The translations under genes and the position numbers were made by a program. DNA of 39,562 bases from a virus (taxonomy: Duplodnaviria; Heunggongvirae; Uroviricota; Caudoviricetes). Positions 483 to 7,906 of the stretch are shown one piece after another; the first letter of the stretch is position 1; each line of letters starts with the position of its first letter. The stretch lies in IMG/VR virus record IMGVR_UViG_2690316243_000006; one strand, given 5' to 3'. The notes under the pieces were generated by a model that ran no database searches, was not told the DNA's origin, and saw only the letters and a list, made by a program, of their open reading frames with translations.

Positions 483-1220
483 TCATTCACTCTCTTTCAA
501 ACCAGTTTTAACTGTTTGTGGTTTTGGGTAAGGCTGGACTTTGAATAGCTTTGTGTTAAGGCGTTTTCTGGCTCTCTTGTCCAGAAACCGGATGTAACGA
601 AACTGACGGAATTTATGAACACTGGCTCTGTCGATATTAGCCCGCAGATGTTCACCTCGCTGTCCTCCTCGTTTGATTGCATTCTTGCAAATCTCGTGAT
701 ACCACTCGCCATCAAGTTCATAGAATGTTGTTTCATGACTGCCTACATAATCAAAATTGCTTGCCTGGTACACGACACCAAGACAGCCACAACGCTCATC
801 TGCAAACGACTGAACCCACTGCACCTGCGGATAAAGTTGTCTGATTAGTTTGAGCGCGTAACTGATTGCCCTTGATTCGGAGTTTCTCGGCATACAGTCA
901 TGCAGCCATAACCGGTTAAGCTCCATATATTCGCGGTTCTGCGTGCCAGTTACGACGCGTGCACCATTGTTTGGATTAAGGGCATAACCCCATTGCATTA
1001 CGCCAACCAGCTCCCGTTCTGAAAATATGCCCAGATGAAGGTAGGAATTATTTACGAAACGATGGCTGTAATGTTTATTGACGACGACCAGCCGGGCCAG
1101 CCAGCAACTTATTGTCTCAACCCGTAACTCACGGGAGCCATAACCGACGATATTGTCGTTATAGTGAATAAGTTCAGGCGTGCTGATGATACGGGATGTA
1201 ACTTGCTTTCTGTTCCCCAC
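483..1220 (-). CDS. mom: Mom-like DNA modification protein (start tentative: GTG at 1220 preceded by AGGAAA; the open frame extends to 1415)
   Basis: Position at the phage right end immediately downstream of, and overlapping, a Com-like zinc-finger gene, as in Mu com-mom; assignment is by synteny, not motif recognition. Confidence 0.55.
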
Positions 1221-1374
1221 GACAGGATTTCCTTGTGTATGTGGGGTGCTCTGTGGCGCTCTGAGATGTGATTTGATTGAGGGTTTTACAGCGCGGACAT
1301 TTAACTTCCAGATAACTGAAGCTGGCTCGTGCCAGTAGCTTGTTACAATGTCGGCACCGTATGTTTCGATACAT
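1174..1374 (-). CDS. com: Com-like zinc-finger translational activator of mom
   Basis: [34 protein letters not shown]...[15 protein letters not shown] resembles Mu Com (CxxC...CPRC zinc finger); ATG at 1374 preceded by GGAGG; 3' end overlaps the mom frame. Confidence 0.8.
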
Positions 1375-1520
1375 GGCCGCATAACCTCCTGCTTTGTTGT
1401 TGATATCTTTATCACTCAATCGATCGACAAAAACGATCGATTTGATTTATTTAATTGATACAACAAATAACACGAAATGTCATTAGCGAAAATTTATGAG
1501 TTTGATCACTAATTTTAAAC
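1375..1520 (-). promoter_or_regulatory. Upstream control region of com-mom with three GATC (Dam) sites
   Basis: GATC at 1422-1425, 1435-1438 and 1504-1507 in an AT-rich leader; in Mu, mom transcription is controlled by Dam methylation of upstream GATC sites and by C protein. Exact promoter not resolved. Confidence 0.45.
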
Positions 1521-2091: not shown

Positions 2092-2346
2092 TTACATCAT
2101 GGTACTGTCAGTTCCGGGCTGAGCCGGGTCTGGTTGCTCTGGCTGCGCGTCGGTTTTCGGCTCATTATCAGCATCACTGGCCGCAACTGCTGGCCCAATA
2201 AGTTTTGCCAGCACTTCATCAACGTAAGTGTCGATTTGTGCCTCAAAATCCTTGCGGACCTGCGCTTTCAGCAACTTATTTACTTCACCGGAATACAGTG
2301 CCTGTTTTACCAGGTCTTCAGTGACGGTGCCTTTAATTTCTGGCAT
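2092..2346 (-). CDS. Hypothetical small acidic helical protein (84 aa)
   Basis: Strong RBS AAGGAGGA 7 nt upstream of the ATG; protein-like composition; downstream of the 60-aa membrane protein gene. Confidence 0.5.
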   Translation of the reverse strand: MPEIKGTVTEDLVKQALYSGEVNKLLKAQVRKDFEAQIDTYVDEVLAKLIGPAVAASDADNEPKTDAQPEQPDPAQPGTDSTMM

Positions 2347-2381
2347 GTATATCCTCCTTATGCGGGAATAAAGCCCTGCAA

Positions 2382-2564
2382 TCAGGGCTGGGTCGGGTCT
2401 TTTGGGAGCGGAGTTACCTGCGCTGTTTTACTGAGTTTTTCAGCTGCTGCGTCCTCAATTTTGCGGCGAACATAATTTCTGATGGCCTTATAACCACCAC
2501 TCACCAGATATAACGCACATACTGCCGTGCAGAAATACAATAAAATAAGCTGTAAAAATGTCAT
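2382..2564 (-). CDS. Small single-pass membrane protein (60 aa; true start ATG at 2564, the ORF-track start at 2576 is a TTG)
   Basis: GGGAGGG RBS before the ATG; N-terminal hydrophobic helix LQLILLYFCTAVCALYLV followed by a basic tail. Confidence 0.5.
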   Translation of the reverse strand: MTFLQLILLYFCTAVCALYLVSGGYKAIRNYVRRKIEDAAAEKLSKTAQVTPLPKDPTQP

Positions 2565-2579
2565 TATCCCTCCCAATTA

Positions 2580-2620
2580 TTGACATGGTGTTGACACCGG
2601 TAATATCTGTTAGGTAAAAA
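2580..2620 (+). promoter_or_regulatory. Candidate sigma70 promoter on the + strand
   Basis: TTGACA at 2580-2585 and again at 2591-2596; TAATAT at 2601-2606; imperfect dyad GGTGTtgACACC at 2587-2598. Confidence 0.3.
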
Positions 2621-2660
2621 GGTGCACTGCATTTTTTGCTTTGGATATAACGATCTTTTT

Positions 2661-2701
2661 GCCGCCGGTTTCTTGTTTTCCCTTACCGGCGGCATTTTTT
2701 T
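2661..2701 (+). terminator. Candidate intrinsic terminator on the + strand
   Basis: GCCGCCGGT ... ACCGGCGGC stem (9 bp, 15-nt loop) followed by a run of seven T at 2695-2701; on the minus strand the stem is followed by AAAAAG, so it is not a canonical terminator for the esterase gene. Confidence 0.45.
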
Positions 2702-2708
2702 ATCCTGC

Positions 2709-4763
2709 TTACGCGTTATTCACTTCCACCACGATACTGTCAATCAGTACCGGGTAAGTCGCATTTTTAGTGATATCGGTCACGCGCAACTTGTCTGCCG
2801 TAAACGTGCCGACCGGAGACTGCGACAGCATGAATGGTGTCCCGTCCTTACCATCAATGACCGGCGTCACCTCAATACTGTTGTTACCGGCAAAACGGAA
2901 GCCCAGCGTATGCCATTCGTTATTAAATGCGCCGAATGACCCCAGCTTCGTGTTCTGCGCCGTGTTTCCTTTGTGATACATCACGTTAAGGTCTGTGGCA
3001 TCGCTCTGTACGTAGAACGATGCCAGCAGGTTATGACCGGCATTTCCTTCCAGAGTAACCCCTTGCGGCAGGGCAGAAACCGGCCAGTACAGCGCCAGTG
3101 CGTACTGATTAGCCGTAAGCGCGCCATCGAGTTTAAAACGACAACTGACAAGACCACCTTTACCCAGCAGGTCCGCACCATTACCAGCATCATGCTCAAG
3201 GTACCAGGGGGCTCTTCCTGTTTCCTTGGTCAGTTTCATTGCCTTACCCCCGCTGGCTCCGGCATCATCCACGATTTGAGCCTTGCCACCTCCGGCAGCC
3301 CAACCCTGTGGTGTCAACCGTCCTTCAGACTCAGATGCCCGGTAAGCAAATAGCGTACTCATCGTCGTGGTGTCTGCGGGTGGCGTGGACGGTTTTGATG
3401 GTGTATCAGGTGACGGCTTCTCATCCGGTGGTGTCACGGTCTGCCCGCGCATCAGTTCAGCCGTGCGCCCTGCATGGAGCATAATAGCTGAGGCCAGACG
3501 GTCTGAAATGACGCCCCTGCGTGCCCATGAGCTGAAATGGCTGTCACGCTGTGTCGAAACAAAACTGCCCTGGGTTCGGGATGCTGCACCGTAATACCCG
3601 ACAGCCACAATATCCGGGTCTTCCGCCGGAGCATTCGTTGGCGTGCTCTGTCCATTCTCATCCGTCAGGAACGGTACAAAGAAAATTTTCTGTGCTTCCT
3701 TGCCTTTGTAGCCACCGTATACTGCCTCATATTTATCGGTGCCAGCGTTTTTCCAGTAATACGTGGTATCACCGCAAATCCACGGCACCGTGGTGGCATT
3801 TCCACTCACGCACTGCGCAGCAAGCGGAGCCAGGTCAGTTCTGAACTGCTGAACCATGGCCGTGAATAAACTATTATGCTGCTGGCTTCCTGAGGCAAGG
3901 TCTGCCTCTCCCTGCATCCAGACCACAGCCAGAAGTTTGTTTTTCGGGTTTTTCGCCAGCGCGACTTTGGTGCGGCTTACCAGGTCCTGATACAGAGGTT
4001 TACCGGCCCCCCAGCGTGAAGAATCAGCGGAAGCACCGCTGGCCTCACTGAATGAGCCGTCGGCTCCAGTGGTGAATGCTGACCCGCCACGACAACAGGG
4101 CACCAGAAGTATCCCGGCATTCTGTGGGATATAGGGAAGCAGTTTTTTGGCAATATGCAACCCCTGACCGACAGTCCCGTACTGGCCTTTTGCCAGATCA
4201 GCTTTCGGGTGGTTTATCCCGCTCATATCCTGAACATCATGCAGGCAGTGGTCTGCCGGAATGATGTCGTTGTATGTACACGACGTACCGTTGGGCGTTA
4301 CCGTACTGCGGCGTGCCAGTTGCTTAATGCGTGGGTCCGGGCGGTCAAACGAATCCGGTAACGGCAGCCCCTCGCCGTAGGCCATGCCATTTGACTGACC
4401 CGCGAGAATGACAACAAAGTAATATTCCGGCTCTGAACTGCTGCCATTCGTGCTACCGGAAGGCCCGGCGTTATCCGGTGCATTCCAGTCGGAGGGCGTG
4501 AGCGTTCCGGCCACGTCAGATGTGATTGGAATGATGCCAGTCACGCCTGAACTGGTGATTTCTGCACTGGGATTACCGGATACCGGCATTACCCATAATG
4601 GCTCTTTCGTGCTGAAGCGGATCACGCAGTCTGCGAAGGTGATCCCCCCTTTATTACCCGAAGGGCGGAAAGGGCTTTCAATAAATGCCACCGTGCCACC
4701 GGCAACCTTGACTGAAAACTCTCCGGGCATGGCGGAGAGCATTTTCCACTTGGAGTCTGACAT
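2709..4763 (-). CDS. Sialate O-acetylesterase-like protein (SASA/SGNH esterase domain, Pro/Thr-rich linker, C-terminal lectin-like domain); resembles prophage NanS-p proteins
   Basis: GQSNGMAYGEG and WMQGEADLASG motifs typical of the SASA family; linker TPPDEKPSPDTPSKPSTPPADTT; about 200-aa C-terminal domain; own promoter region after the gin terminator. Confidence 0.7.
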   Translation of the reverse strand: MSDSKWKMLSAMPGEFSVKVAGGTVAFIESPFRPSGNKGGITFADCVIRFSTKEPLWVMPVSGNPSAEITSSGVTGIIPITSDVAGTLTPSDWNAPDNAGPSGSTNGSSSEPEYYFVVILAGQSNGMAYGEGLPLPDSFDRPDPRIKQLARRSTVTPNGTSCTYNDIIPADHCLHDVQDMSGINHPKADLAKGQYGTVGQGLHIAKKLLPYIPQNAGILLVPCCRGGSAFTTGADGSFSEASGASADSSRWGAGKPLYQDLVSRTKVALAKNPKNKLLAVVWMQGEADLASGSQQHNSLFTAMVQQFRTDLAPLAAQCVSGNATTVPWICGDTTYYWKNAGTDKYEAVYGGYKGKEAQKIFFVPFLTDENGQSTPTNAPAEDPDIVAVGYYGAASRTQGSFVSTQRDSHFSSWARRGVISDRLASAIMLHAGRTAELMRGQTVTPPDEKPSPDTPSKPSTPPADTTTMSTLFAYRASESEGRLTPQGWAAGGGKAQIVDDAGASGGKAMKLTKETGRAPWYLEHDAGNGADLLGKGGLVSCRFKLDGALTANQYALALYWPVSALPQGVTLEGNAGHNLLASFYVQSDATDLNVMYHKGNTAQNTKLGSFGAFNNEWHTLGFRFAGNNSIEVTPVIDGKDGTPFMLSQSPVGTFTADKLRVTDITKNATYPVLIDSIVVEVNNA

Positions 4764-4833: not shown

Positions 4834-4868
4834 AAATTCAAAAAAGCGTCACGGTACTTTTGGTGACG
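4834..4868 (-). terminator. Intrinsic terminator at the 3' end of gin
   Basis: Minus-strand hairpin CGTCAC/GTGACG (4847-4868, overlapping the gin stop codon) followed by CUUUUUUGAAUUU. Confidence 0.55.
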
Positions 4869-5421
4869 GAGCTGGTGAGGCAGGAAAATAACGATAAAGG
4901 GTGGAAAGGCCAATATCAAATATCAGTGCGATTTGTTTACGGGACTCGCCATTAGCCAGCAAACGGGCGATTTGCTCCCGCTCTTTCTCTGTCAGTTTCT
5001 GAGGTCTGCCGCCATGACGCCCCTGAGCACGGGCAGCAGCAAGACCCGCGCGTGTACGTTCAATAATGAGTTCCCGCTCCATTTCCGCCAGCGCGCCCAT
5101 TATATGGAAAAAGAAACGTCCCATGGGAGTGGATGTATCAATATTGTCCGTAATGCTGCGGAAGTTAACGCCGCGTTGCCGGAGTTCTTCTGTTAAAAGG
5201 ACAAGGTGCTGCATACTGCGTCCAAGGCGATCCAGTTTCCAGACCAGCAGGGTATCCCCTGGCCGGAGTCGCTTTAATGCGCGTTTAAGTCCGGGACGCT
5301 CCCTTGTCTTACCGCTTATTCTGTCTTCGAAAAACAGCTCACATCCTGCACATTCCAGCGCATTTCTTTGTAGCGCCGTATTCTGGTCATTTGTTGACAC
5401 CCTGATATACCCAATCAGCAT
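4849..5421 (-). CDS. gin: Gin/Hin/Pin/Cin-family serine DNA invertase
   Basis: MLIGYIRVSTNDQNTALQRNALE... (catalytic Ser in RVSTNDQ), 190 aa, C-terminal HTH; adjacent to the invertible tail-fibre segment. Confidence 0.9.
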   Translation of the reverse strand: MLIGYIRVSTNDQNTALQRNALECAGCELFFEDRISGKTRERPGLKRALKRLRPGDTLLVWKLDRLGRSMQHLVLLTEELRQRGVNFRSITDNIDTSTPMGRFFFHIMGALAEMERELIIERTRAGLAAARAQGRHGGRPQKLTEKEREQIARLLANGESRKQIALIFDIGLSTLYRYFPASPAPSPKVP

Positions 5422-5486: not shown

Positions 5487-5512
5487 TTCCTGAAAACCTC
5501 GGTTTACGGGAA
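5487..5512. promoter_or_regulatory. gix/hix-like recombination site (left), crossover core TC at 5499-5500
   Basis: TTCCTGAAAACC TC GGTTTACGGGAA; close to Mu gix and Salmonella hix half-sites; lies at the outer boundary of the left inverted repeat. Confidence 0.7.
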
Positions 5513-5860
5513 ACGGTAAACAGGGCGGCGAATGCTCTGCCATCGGACGGCACCGCCGTTGCCGCGAATAGACTCGCCACCCCAAGAAATATTAATGGGG
5601 TTCCCTTTGACGGGACGCAGGACATAAACATCACTTCTGGTATAACACAGCAGGATGCGGATTCCCGATATATCCAGGATATCAGGCTGGGAGCAGAGAA
5701 CAGGCAGACAATGTACGGTGGGGCATATTACTCTGCGTACGGTAATGTTATGGCAGGCCTGCAGATTGACAGTAAAGTTGATGCTTCAAACGATTTTATA
5801 GCATTCAGACCCCTGCAAAAATTAGTCGGAGGTACATGGATTACGGTATCTCAGTTATAA
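5500..5860 (+). other. Silent alternative tail-fibre C-terminal cassette (promoterless, no start codon)
   Basis: + strand frame open from the gix core to TAA at 5858-5860, encoding ...[47 protein letters not shown]...GGTWITVSQL; the first ~40 aa are identical to the corresponding part of the expressed fibre. Confidence 0.6.
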
Positions 5861-5911
5861 ATAGTCAGTAAATAATATATTTTAAAACAGATTTATTTCC
5901 AGGAGGATTTT

Positions 5912-6433
5912 ATGGAACTAAAAAATATAACCCGTTATTATCCTGAAAATATGCCATATGGTAATAATGTTCAGTATTTCCAGAGTGAAGATGGTAAGGA
6001 TTTCTACGAATCCCTGCCATTATTCACCAAAAAATATAAACTTTGCATAACACCTGACAGCGGCGTTATCTGCTCAATATCACAGGACGCCTCGGCGCTG
6101 TATCCTGCGGGGTTTTCTGTGGTTGAGGTCGATGAACTCCCTGAAGGCACGGATATTTCAGGAAACTGGAAGTTTGATAATGGCATAATCTCCCGTATTC
6201 CGGTTAACTACGCAAGAAAACTGGAAGCAATGCGCCAGTCATATCTTAATCAGGCATATGAAAAAATTAATGACTGGAGAACGGAGCTACAACTGGGCAC
6301 CATCAGCGATGAAGACAGAGCAGCACTTACCCAATGGATGGCATACATCAGTCAGGTGAAGAAAATGGAACTACCCGCCATTAAAACAGAAGCTGAATTT
6401 AACGCCATTAAATGGCCTGAGCAGCCACAGTAA
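5912..6433 (+). CDS. Tail fibre assembly protein (Tfa/U-like chaperone) inside the invertible segment
   Basis: AGGAGGA RBS; C-terminal region ...EDRAALTQWMAYISQVKKMELPAIKTEAEFNAIKWPEQPQ is typical of Tfa chaperones; currently antisense to the expressed fibre gene. Confidence 0.75.
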   Translation: MELKNITRYYPENMPYGNNVQYFQSEDGKDFYESLPLFTKKYKLCITPDSGVICSISQDASALYPAGFSVVEVDELPEGTDISGNWKFDNGIISRIPVNYARKLEAMRQSYLNQAYEKINDWRTELQLGTISDEDRAALTQWMAYISQVKKMELPAIKTEAEFNAIKWPEQPQ

Positions 6434-6436
6434 TAA

Positions 6437-6456
6437 AGAAGGCCGGAAGGCCTTCT
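6437..6456. terminator. GC-rich hairpin between the convergent Tfa and tail-fibre genes
   Basis: AGAAGGCC GGAA GGCCTTCT (8-bp stem, 4-nt loop); flanks are AT-rich but not a clean U-run on either strand. Confidence 0.4.
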
Positions 6457-6464
6457 GAATATCA

Positions 6465-7346
6465 TTATATACTTGCAGCCGTCACCCATGCTCCATTTAA
6501 CAGATACTGCAACGGCCGGTAATACACGCCGCCGACGTTATCTGCCGTATTCTTACCGACATCCTGTACTTTAATTCCGGTAAGAACATTGCCGCCCCCC
6601 AGATTCAGATCCCAGCTTTCCCATGTTCCGGGCATATGTGCGGTCACCGACCCCAGTCTTATGGCGGTTACTGTTCCTGATGAGATAGTGATATCCTGCG
6701 TCCCGTCAAAGGGAACACCATTAATTGTGTGGGCATTTGCCAGCCTGTTCGCGGCAACGGCGGTGCCGTCCGATGGCAGGGCATTCGCCGCCCTGTTTAC
6801 CGTTTCCCGTAAACCGACGTTATCGATAAAAGCCCCTTTATCCGGAATGTCTGCGCCGTTCTGCTCCCTGCGCAGGTAACGGTTATCACCTTCGCTTTTG
6901 CTGTAAACATCCAGATTATTACGGGCGGTTCCCTTATTCTCCAGGTCGGCGAGATTCTGATCCTTCGCCAGGGCATTAACGTCAGCGGGACCAAGACTGT
7001 TTTTTGTGGCAAGCGTCCCCAGACCAAGATAACCACGGGCCAGACGCTGGGCCTCCGCACCGGCATCAGCAATTTCTTTCAGGTTATTTTTCCGGGAAAA
7101 GGCATTCGCAGCGATAATGGCTTTAATGGACAGCGTAAGCTGGTTTAACTGCGCCTTATCCGGCTGAATACTGGCTTCAGCCAGAATATTCAGCAGTTCG
7201 GCCTGGAGAATATTCAGCCAGTCCTGACCAATCCAGCTGATACCTTTTTGTCCGTCACCTTCGGTAAACCAGGTGGTGGTATTACTCTGCGCCGGTGCCA
7301 GCGCAGGCATATTCGCCACGCCGGAATTATTATCAACATGAAACAT
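6465..7346 (-). CDS. Tail fibre protein (S-like), with the currently expressed C-terminal variable part
   Basis: 293 aa; reads through the right inverted repeat and gix site; follows the baseplate genes in Mu order. Confidence 0.75.
6804..6829. promoter_or_regulatory. gix/hix-like recombination site (right), crossover core GA at 6816-6817
   Basis: TTCCCGTAAACC GA CGTTATCGATAA; shares the half-site TTCCCGTAAACC with the left site in inverted orientation; lies inside the tail-fibre coding sequence. Confidence 0.7.
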
Positions 7347-7906
7347 TAAATAGTCTCCTCTTCATGGCTGTTTGCATAAACGTAAATAAACGTCTGCCAT
7401 GCAGGCTTATAACGGTTCAGAATACATTCCAGCGCACCGCCTTCATAAATACGCAGCGGCGTGAGAATATCATCCAGCACATTCATATTCCGGTAGCCGG
7501 TTTCACTGTTAATCGTGACAATACTGACCCACTGCGAATCCGGTGAGGGCTGAATGTCAATCTGATAACCAAACTCCGCCGCAAACCGGATATAAAATTC
7601 ACGGTTCAGCGAGGGCTTCATCCGGTATTTATTTCCGGCATAACGCTGTCGCTCCGTGAGGGTGGCTCCGGCCATATCACACTCGGGAAGCCCGAGATAA
7701 CGCTCCCAGTCTTCCAGCAGCAGGCGCGACGTGTCAGGGAAACGCTCGGCAAGCAGCTGTTTACCCGTCCAGGATACACGCGCTGTCGAATGACTGAGGC
7801 CCAGACATAATGATGCCAGTACGGATGACGGACGCTTGTCCCATGCCAGCCCGTCAGGCAGTAACTGCAACAGGGCGCGCTGATGCGGGGTCAGGGTTAC
7901 AGCCAT
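7346..7906 (-). CDS. Tail protein (Mu gp48 / P2 gpI-like)
   Basis: 186 aa, between the baseplate J-like gene and the tail fibre gene; assignment by synteny. Confidence 0.6.

Follow-up and report, generated by a model that had tools for sequence, protein, structure and literature searches.

The DNA analysed here, called the window throughout, is the whole 39,562-nt stretch recorded in IMG/VR as IMGVR_UViG_2690316243_000006. Its source element is a Mu-like prophage of Escherichia coli, of the same type as Sp18 of strain O157:H7 Sakai. Next to the invertase gene gin it carries an invertible tail-fibre segment, a functional, naturally flipping variant of the Mu G segment that belongs to the known Sp18 type, in print since 2009. 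The switch itself is textbook biology; the under-analysed feature is its single-chaperone asymmetry. Two alternative fibre tips, A and B, are accompanied by one gene for a tail fibre assembly (Tfa) chaperone, which in the present orientation lies on the strand opposite the expressed fibre. This asymmetry is a conserved family trait, not a lesion. As to how the opposed tip obtains a chaperone, we give slightly better than even chances to a generalist Tfa that acts on both tips and that, in the present orientation, is transcribed independently of the fibre.

The Gin/gix switch and its two fibre tips

The invertase gene (4849..5421, minus strand) encodes a 190-aa Gin-like serine DNA invertase and is transcribed away from the segment. 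The protein matches PF00239 (Resolvase) at 1.6e-51 and PF02796 (HTH_7) at 4.9e-15, shares 136 of 190 residues (72%) with Mu Gin, and contains the YIRVSTNDQ motif with the catalytic serine. The first 200 nt of the gene, the part in which invertases of this kind have a Fis-bound recombinational enhancer, are 75% identical to Mu gin, ungapped. The gene starts 65 nt from the first of two 26-bp gix-like sites. This gin-side site, TTCCTGAAAACCTCGGTTTACGGGAA (5487..5512), has its core TC at 5499-5500 and agrees with the Mu gin-side gix at 21 of 26 positions. The fibre-side site (6804..6829; reverse complement TTATCGATAACGTCGGTTTACGGGAA) has its core GA, or TC on the minus strand, at 6816-6817, and agrees with its Mu counterpart at 22 of 26, the Mu reference sites being taken from NC_000929. 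The two window sites are inverted, with the same core TC and identical inner half-sites, and they fall on the same codons as in Mu (...ETVN...).

Both sites stand at the outer edges of an inverted repeat, whose left arm (5492..5640) encodes an amino-acid stretch shared by both tips and whose right arm spans 6676..6824. The arms pair over 86 nt at 93% identity (5492-5577 with 6739-6824) and over 50 nt at 84% (5591-5640 with 6676-6725); by BLAST, the same repeat measures 127-145 nt at 85-89%. From core to core the segment is 1,317 bp long. The arrangement is not due to chance, since the same segment occurs at 99% identity or more in 17 complete E. coli genomes. The initial annotation, made from the window alone, had described inverted 26-bp gix/hix-like sites at the edges of ~126-bp inverted repeats with gin immediately outside, and this description was borne out in each respect.

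Inversion exchanges cassettes of ~117-120 codons, which make up the 3′ end of the tail-fibre gene. Tip A, which is opposed to tfa and currently expressed, forms the end of that gene on the minus strand (6465..6816); its closest solved relative is the short tail fibre 9cuy_c (1.3e-10), with weaker matches to Mu S′ and S. Tip B, the silent alternative linked to tfa, lies on the plus strand (5500..5860), is open from the gix site without a start codon, and stops at 5858-5860. Both finish in a ~70-residue Mu S/S′ head domain. In tip B this domain is Mu-S-like (E = 2e-7), the homology to fibre tips that the initial annotation had set as the test of its promoterless alternative C-terminus, and in E. 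coli FORC_043 tip B is the end of an expressed 296-aa fibre. The predicted folds of the tips and of Tfa are fixed by homology to solved Mu S/U. Although the silent tip is half of a functional gene, annotation pipelines call it a pseudogene or enter it as small proteins named 'hypothetical' or 'tail fiber'.

Acting on the paired gix sites, Gin inverts the 1,317-bp segment and thereby swaps the two homologous tip cassettes; in the favoured reading, this is an active host-range switch of the Sp18-type prophage. The switch flips in nature, as observed in related genomes rather than in the window's own strain. Inversion of the window in silico at the gix cores gave a single alignment to FORC_043 of 2,601 nt at 99.6% identity, whereas the native orientation aligned in three pieces. 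FORC_043 (flipped) and strain JE86-ST05 (the window's orientation) share the same annotated gin product, WP_000904914.1, so that the predicted inverted orientation was found in a gin-intact genome. The same operation applied to the Sp18 tip set matched two genomes at 100%. Orientations were then counted in 5,426 complete E. coli genomes. The window's tip set was found 20 times in the window's orientation and 6 times flipped, and the Sp18 tip set 182 and 25 times, respectively, giving 202 tfa-opposed against 31 tfa-linked arrangements for both sets together. This bias was dropped as evidence of function, because clonal inheritance or biased flipping could give it.

Some copies carry defects. 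The silent tip A of FORC_043 (locus L002, ~3920) has a frameshift from a 1-nt deletion in a G/C run. Strains DLI.5a, TOE17 and AST46 hold second, truncated prophage copies with a frameshifted gin, fixed in the flipped orientation (L012/L013 1550-2121; L014 2186-3540), and in the AST46 copy the tips, interrupted by many small gaps, resemble hybrids of A and B. Such frameshifts and gaps are signs of either decay or sequencing error.

Comparison with Mu G showed a common plan at a reduced scale. In both elements the constant N-terminal part of the fibre lies outside the segment; in the window it occupies 6817..7346 (minus strand), and its residues 1-191 are homologous to Mu S residues 1-184 (~1e-46). 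In both, gin lies beside the segment and is read in the direction away from it, com and mom then follow, and each tip finishes in the Mu S/S′ head domain. The Mu segment, however, measures 3,059 bp against 1,317 bp here, its variable parts have ~330 codons against ~117-120, a ~240-residue middle being absent from the window, and it provides a Tfa for each cassette (U and U′) where the window has one. The proposal of a Gin-type invertible segment, reduced relative to Mu G and with one Tfa, is therefore upheld.

The P1 C segment with Cin undergoes the same invertase-driven swap of the fibre C-terminus. The P1-like record MH422554 has the order invertase, fibre and Tfa, followed by an opposite Tfa and fibre; unlike the window, it has one chaperone per orientation. 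The e14 P segment presumably also has one chaperone per orientation. With its invertase Pin, it performs the same kind of swap (PMC4272514). Multiple-inversion systems, namely Min of p15B and a three-repeat locus of a P2-like element in enteropathogenic E. coli (EPEC; PMC4272514), differ from the window, which has two sites and two tips. A phase-variable locus in EPEC E2348/69, described as a 'Mu prophage' (PMC4272514), is only a possible member of the Sp18-type family.

A single Tfa gene as a family trait

The tfa gene (5912..6433, plus strand, preceded by AGGAGG) encodes 173 aa and begins 51 nt 3′ of the tip B stop codon. Its product matches the Caudo_TAP family (PF02413) at 4.8e-19, with 69.2 bits against a cut-off of 22.1, and Mu U (5yvq_B) at 4.2e-16; its identity to Mu U and U′ is 32-36%. 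As a member of the Caudo_TAP family, it would bind the C-terminal head of the fibre and be required for trimerisation. The stop codons of the fibre gene (6465) and tfa (6433) are convergent and only 31 nt apart, so no second chaperone lies between them. No second Tfa was detected at E ≤ 10 anywhere in the 39.5-kb window, using a hidden Markov model (HMM) of 16 Tfa proteins in all six frames; the same HMM gives two Tfas in the canonical loci L021 and L024. A chaperone of another kind on the minus strand past the fibre stop was also considered, and rejected because only 31 nt remain before the tfa stop. Minus-strand open reading frames of 45-66 aa farther on are antisense to tfa or tip B and were not treated as genes. 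The earlier claim of only one chaperone, on the strand opposite the expressed fibre, is borne out by this single HMM match.

To place the layout, IMG/VR was scanned with the fibre N-terminus and the matches were classified by Tfa, tip and Gin profiles. A scan of genome contigs with the same N-terminus yielded 5 loci only, and the IMG/VR scan was far more informative. It split the matches into two groups. The canonical group, with the order tip-tfa / tfa-tip, has 11 complete loci and one cut by a contig end, in addition to Mu and an E. coli Mu prophage. In the other group a single tfa lies between two tips; one detected tfa was found in 40 loci from IMG/VR and genomes combined. The slot opposite tfa held a tip of class A or C in all 40. 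These two classes are related, both having the motif VQDxG..ADNxGGVYYRP. The tfa-linked slot of the same loci held members of five other tip clusters, and never A or C. The one-Tfa segment was found in several hundred E. coli genomes.

Two arrangements depart from the simple form. A Citrobacter braakii ATCC 51113 prophage (L016, 7800-10300) has three gix-like sites (~7826, 9839 and 10200) and three tips but only one Tfa, of 229 aa. Several inversions around a single chaperone thus seem possible in this prophage, much as in the multiple-inversion systems described above. Two records of Shiga toxin (Stx)-converting phages, LC727881.1 (L001, 35677-75644) and LC727895.1, contain a whole Mu-like phage of the Sp18-type family, inserted according to the depositors, with the same one-Tfa segment and the C/D tip set.

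The best-known member is Sp18 itself. Its genes follow the same order as in the window, with fibre ECs_4989, convergent tfa ECs_4990, silent tip ECs_4991 and invertase ECs_4992, and both elements then continue alike with a DUF6645 protein, DUF1378, DUF826, com and mom. Sp18 also has the window's orientation. The constant fibre part is ~98% identical between the two (read from L005, which has the same tip set as Sp18), while Tfa is 62% and Gin 78% identical, and the Sp18 tips are C and D where the window has A and B. Asadulghani et al. (2009) described the Sp18 region as an invertible host-specificity region distinct from that of Mu, called Sp18 intact and efficiently packaged, and attributed to it one of three phage morphologies in the supernatant (PMC2669165). 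Neither in that paper nor in the other literature searched was a discussion of the single chaperone of the Sp18-type segment found.

Chaperone supply to the opposed tip

The initial annotation had offered three explanations for the missing chaperone: that the present orientation is non-functional, that the chaperone has its own promoter, or that the present tip does not need one. The first was examined through selection on the tips. The ratio of non-synonymous to synonymous substitution (dN/dS) for tip A was 0.09 at dS 0.46 (window against L006/L007), and for tip C, the tfa-opposed tip of the Sp18 set, 0.10 at dS 0.86. The tfa-linked tips gave 0.09-0.11, and tfa itself 0.16. The opposed tips are under purifying selection, not decaying, at a strength that on these alignments equals that of the linked tips. 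They are also exchanged as cassettes, A or C, and remain intact.

These values bear directly on the view that the present orientation is a non-infective OFF state, in which Tfa is needed but not made and the segment works as an ON/OFF rather than a host-range switch. The convergence of tfa with the fibre gene, the lack of a detectable promoter and a head domain of Tfa-dependent type by homology all agree with such a state. The selection on tips A and C and the swapping of intact cassettes do not, nor does the existence of a diversified lineage locked in the opposed orientation. The opposed orientation is also the commoner one in assemblies, though with the reservation stated above that clonality or unequal flipping could cause the bias. 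An OFF state is accordingly disfavoured, and we regard it as very improbable.

If tip A is functional, the question becomes whether Tfa acts on it. Relatives of tips A and C outside the family are 45-60% identical to them, and a Tfa-type gene lies directly 3′ of the tip in Certrevirus PBES02, POP15, phage TH18, a P2-like phage, P1, the canonical E. coli Mu prophage and a Citrobacter prophage. Because these relatives each have an adjoining Tfa-type gene, the A/C head would by homology be a chaperone client. Tfa proteins in turn appear to tolerate different tips, judging from their partners. Members of a single Tfa cluster (≥80% identity) adjoin tips of four clusters, which share only 31-48% identity with one another, and Mu U partners an E-class head while its 91%-identical homologue partners an A/C-class head. 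The N-domain of the window Tfa scores best against Tfas that partner A/C tips (PBES02, POP15 and P1), which is weak evidence. A Tfa type that co-varies with either tip was also sought, and none was found; the same Tfa cluster occurs with several tip combinations, so that no tip could be assigned.

Tolerance of this kind would also allow the chaperone for tip A to be supplied in trans, by the Tfa of another prophage in the same cell. Several Tfa genes are common in E. coli genomes. Other prophages, however, would not reliably be co-induced, and a phage that relied on them would lose its chaperone when it entered a new host; the convergent tfa kept by the locked lineage is also left unexplained. 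Supply in trans is thus scarcely to be expected, and we place it last among the readings considered.

In the locked lineage, tfa can never join the fibre transcript. This lineage is defined by one shared deletion junction, and with the deletion it lost most of gin, the gin-side gix and the linked tip. It was sampled in 8 loci, one from a complete genome and seven from IMG/VR (L004 2964-3269; L032-L034, L037, L041, L042 and L049). In all 8, the fibre gene is intact and ends in tip A or C, and the convergent tfa (173 aa) is intact as well, with dN/dS of 0.10-0.23 at dS up to 0.43. The junction occurs in 7 complete genomes, one of which is among the 8 loci, and tfa is annotated as intact in all 7. 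Strain JE86-ST05 holds the locked type and the window's type together. The lineage keeps a tfa that is transcribable only on its own, and the opposed tip is its sole possible client.

The DNA upstream of this tfa is also conserved. In the locked lineage and the invertible loci closest to it, the rate of change in the 88 nt 5′ of tfa is lower by a factor of 3.4 than that at tfa synonymous sites (K 0.096 against dS 0.329). Two dyads lie in this non-coding element of ~88 nt (L004 3170-3268, with equivalents in L006-L008 and L056-L059): CTGAAAATATGCGTTATTTCAG, which is similar to gix half-sites, and TTGCCTGTATATGGCAA. The last 50 nt of the element are nearly invariant.

Taken together, the selection on opposed tips, the Tfas of A/C relatives, the locked lineage and the tolerance of Tfa for different heads make the generalist Tfa the most likely mechanism. 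Sp18, which shares the window's layout and orientation and was reported to be efficiently packaged and to form particles (PMC2669165), also counts in its favour. In the flipped orientation, tfa follows the fibre gene at 51 nt and would be co-transcribed with it. In the present orientation, where the two genes are convergent, tfa would be transcribed independently from a putative promoter of its own, and the single Tfa would act on tip A as well as on tip B. Both the action on tip A and the independent promoter are inferred.

Several observations weigh against this reading. A consensus scan found no sigma-70-like promoter on the plus strand 5′ of the window tfa, and sigma-70 matches in L004 and L005 did not exceed shuffled expectation. 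When the DNA upstream of tfa was compared by eye with candidate late promoters from Sp18, Mu and the window, no defensible common motif of the Mu C type emerged. The window lacks the conserved 88-nt element found in its relatives; its spacer upstream of tfa is an unrelated 51 nt. The diversity of the locked lineage could have come by recombination from invertible relatives, and since recombination could import selected alleles, the low tfa dN/dS is no strict proof of selection after locking. Finally, an opposed slot reserved for A and C fits equally well a tip class that can do without a co-transcribed Tfa. The proposal of a separate promoter is favoured, though indirectly, while the promoter itself was not found in the window.

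The last of these points leads to the third explanation, that tips of the A/C class fold without Tfa. Tfa would then be the dedicated partner of the linked tip, perhaps remaining bound as part of the adhesin, and the switch would alternate chaperone-free and chaperone-dependent fibres. Such a functional asymmetry fits the 40 of 40 loci in which A or C is opposed and never linked, and it requires no promoter for tfa, as none was found in the window. The two convergent stop codons flank a GC-rich hairpin (6437..6456, minus strand; 8-bp stem, then TTATTACTGT) that is terminator-like on the minus strand only, and would close the fibre transcript right after tip A. The short fibre, of 293 aa with a small head, may also fold more easily. 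Against this, every relative with an A/C head examined outside the family has a Tfa-type gene directly 3′, and in the locked lineage, where the sole tip is of the A/C class, tfa is intact and constrained in 8 of 8 loci, with conserved non-coding DNA 5′ of it. We therefore judge a Tfa-independent tip A to be unlikely, albeit the most serious of the alternatives.

The generalist Tfa can be extended to the family as a whole. In such a 'hub chaperone' design, one orientation-independent Tfa would fold any head joined to the fibre, with the opposed slot reserved for A/C tips and at least five others using the linked slot. We consider this plausible, if somewhat short of an even chance. The tfa gene would then possibly be expressed from an activator-dependent late promoter, and relatives reach three tips per Tfa (the Citrobacter locus L016). 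If the design holds, Tfa specificity would be much looser than in the one-fibre-one-chaperone picture, and the segment would offer a compact scaffold for swapping receptor-binding heads. If one generalist Tfa with its own promoter serves both tips, the host range of a phage or tailocin could be changed by swapping the ~70-80-residue variable part of the head, without a matched chaperone. The segment in any case presents a natural experiment on chaperone specificity, in which two heads, or three in the relative, share one Tfa.

Prophage layout and cargo

The window is in essence a single Mu-like prophage, whose late genes are encoded on the minus strand. Homologues of Mu baseplate proteins gp44-gp48 are encoded at 11137-7346, the gp48 homologue (7346-7906) lying directly 5′ of the 293-aa tail-fibre gene (7346-6465, minus strand). 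Downstream of the invertase, on the minus strand, a gene for a 684-aa SASA/DUF6645 protein is followed by com and mom.

The region between gin and com/mom (2092-4763, minus strand) holds cargo, unlike Mu, which has no gene between gin and com. The 684-aa protein combines a sialate O-acetylesterase (SASA) domain with DUF6645 at its C-terminus, and its gene is followed by two small genes annotated in relatives as DUF1378 and DUF826. We take this SASA/DUF6645-DUF1378-DUF826 trio to be the one that lies 3′ of stx in Stx phages, where it includes NanS-p-type esterases. The longest open reading frames for com and mom (1174-1419 and 483-1415, minus strand) overlap and exceed their Pfam domains, the Com zinc ribbon covering residues 16-58 of 81 and the Mom domain residues 96-298 of 310. 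The true com and mom starts are probably internal, as annotated in Sp18.

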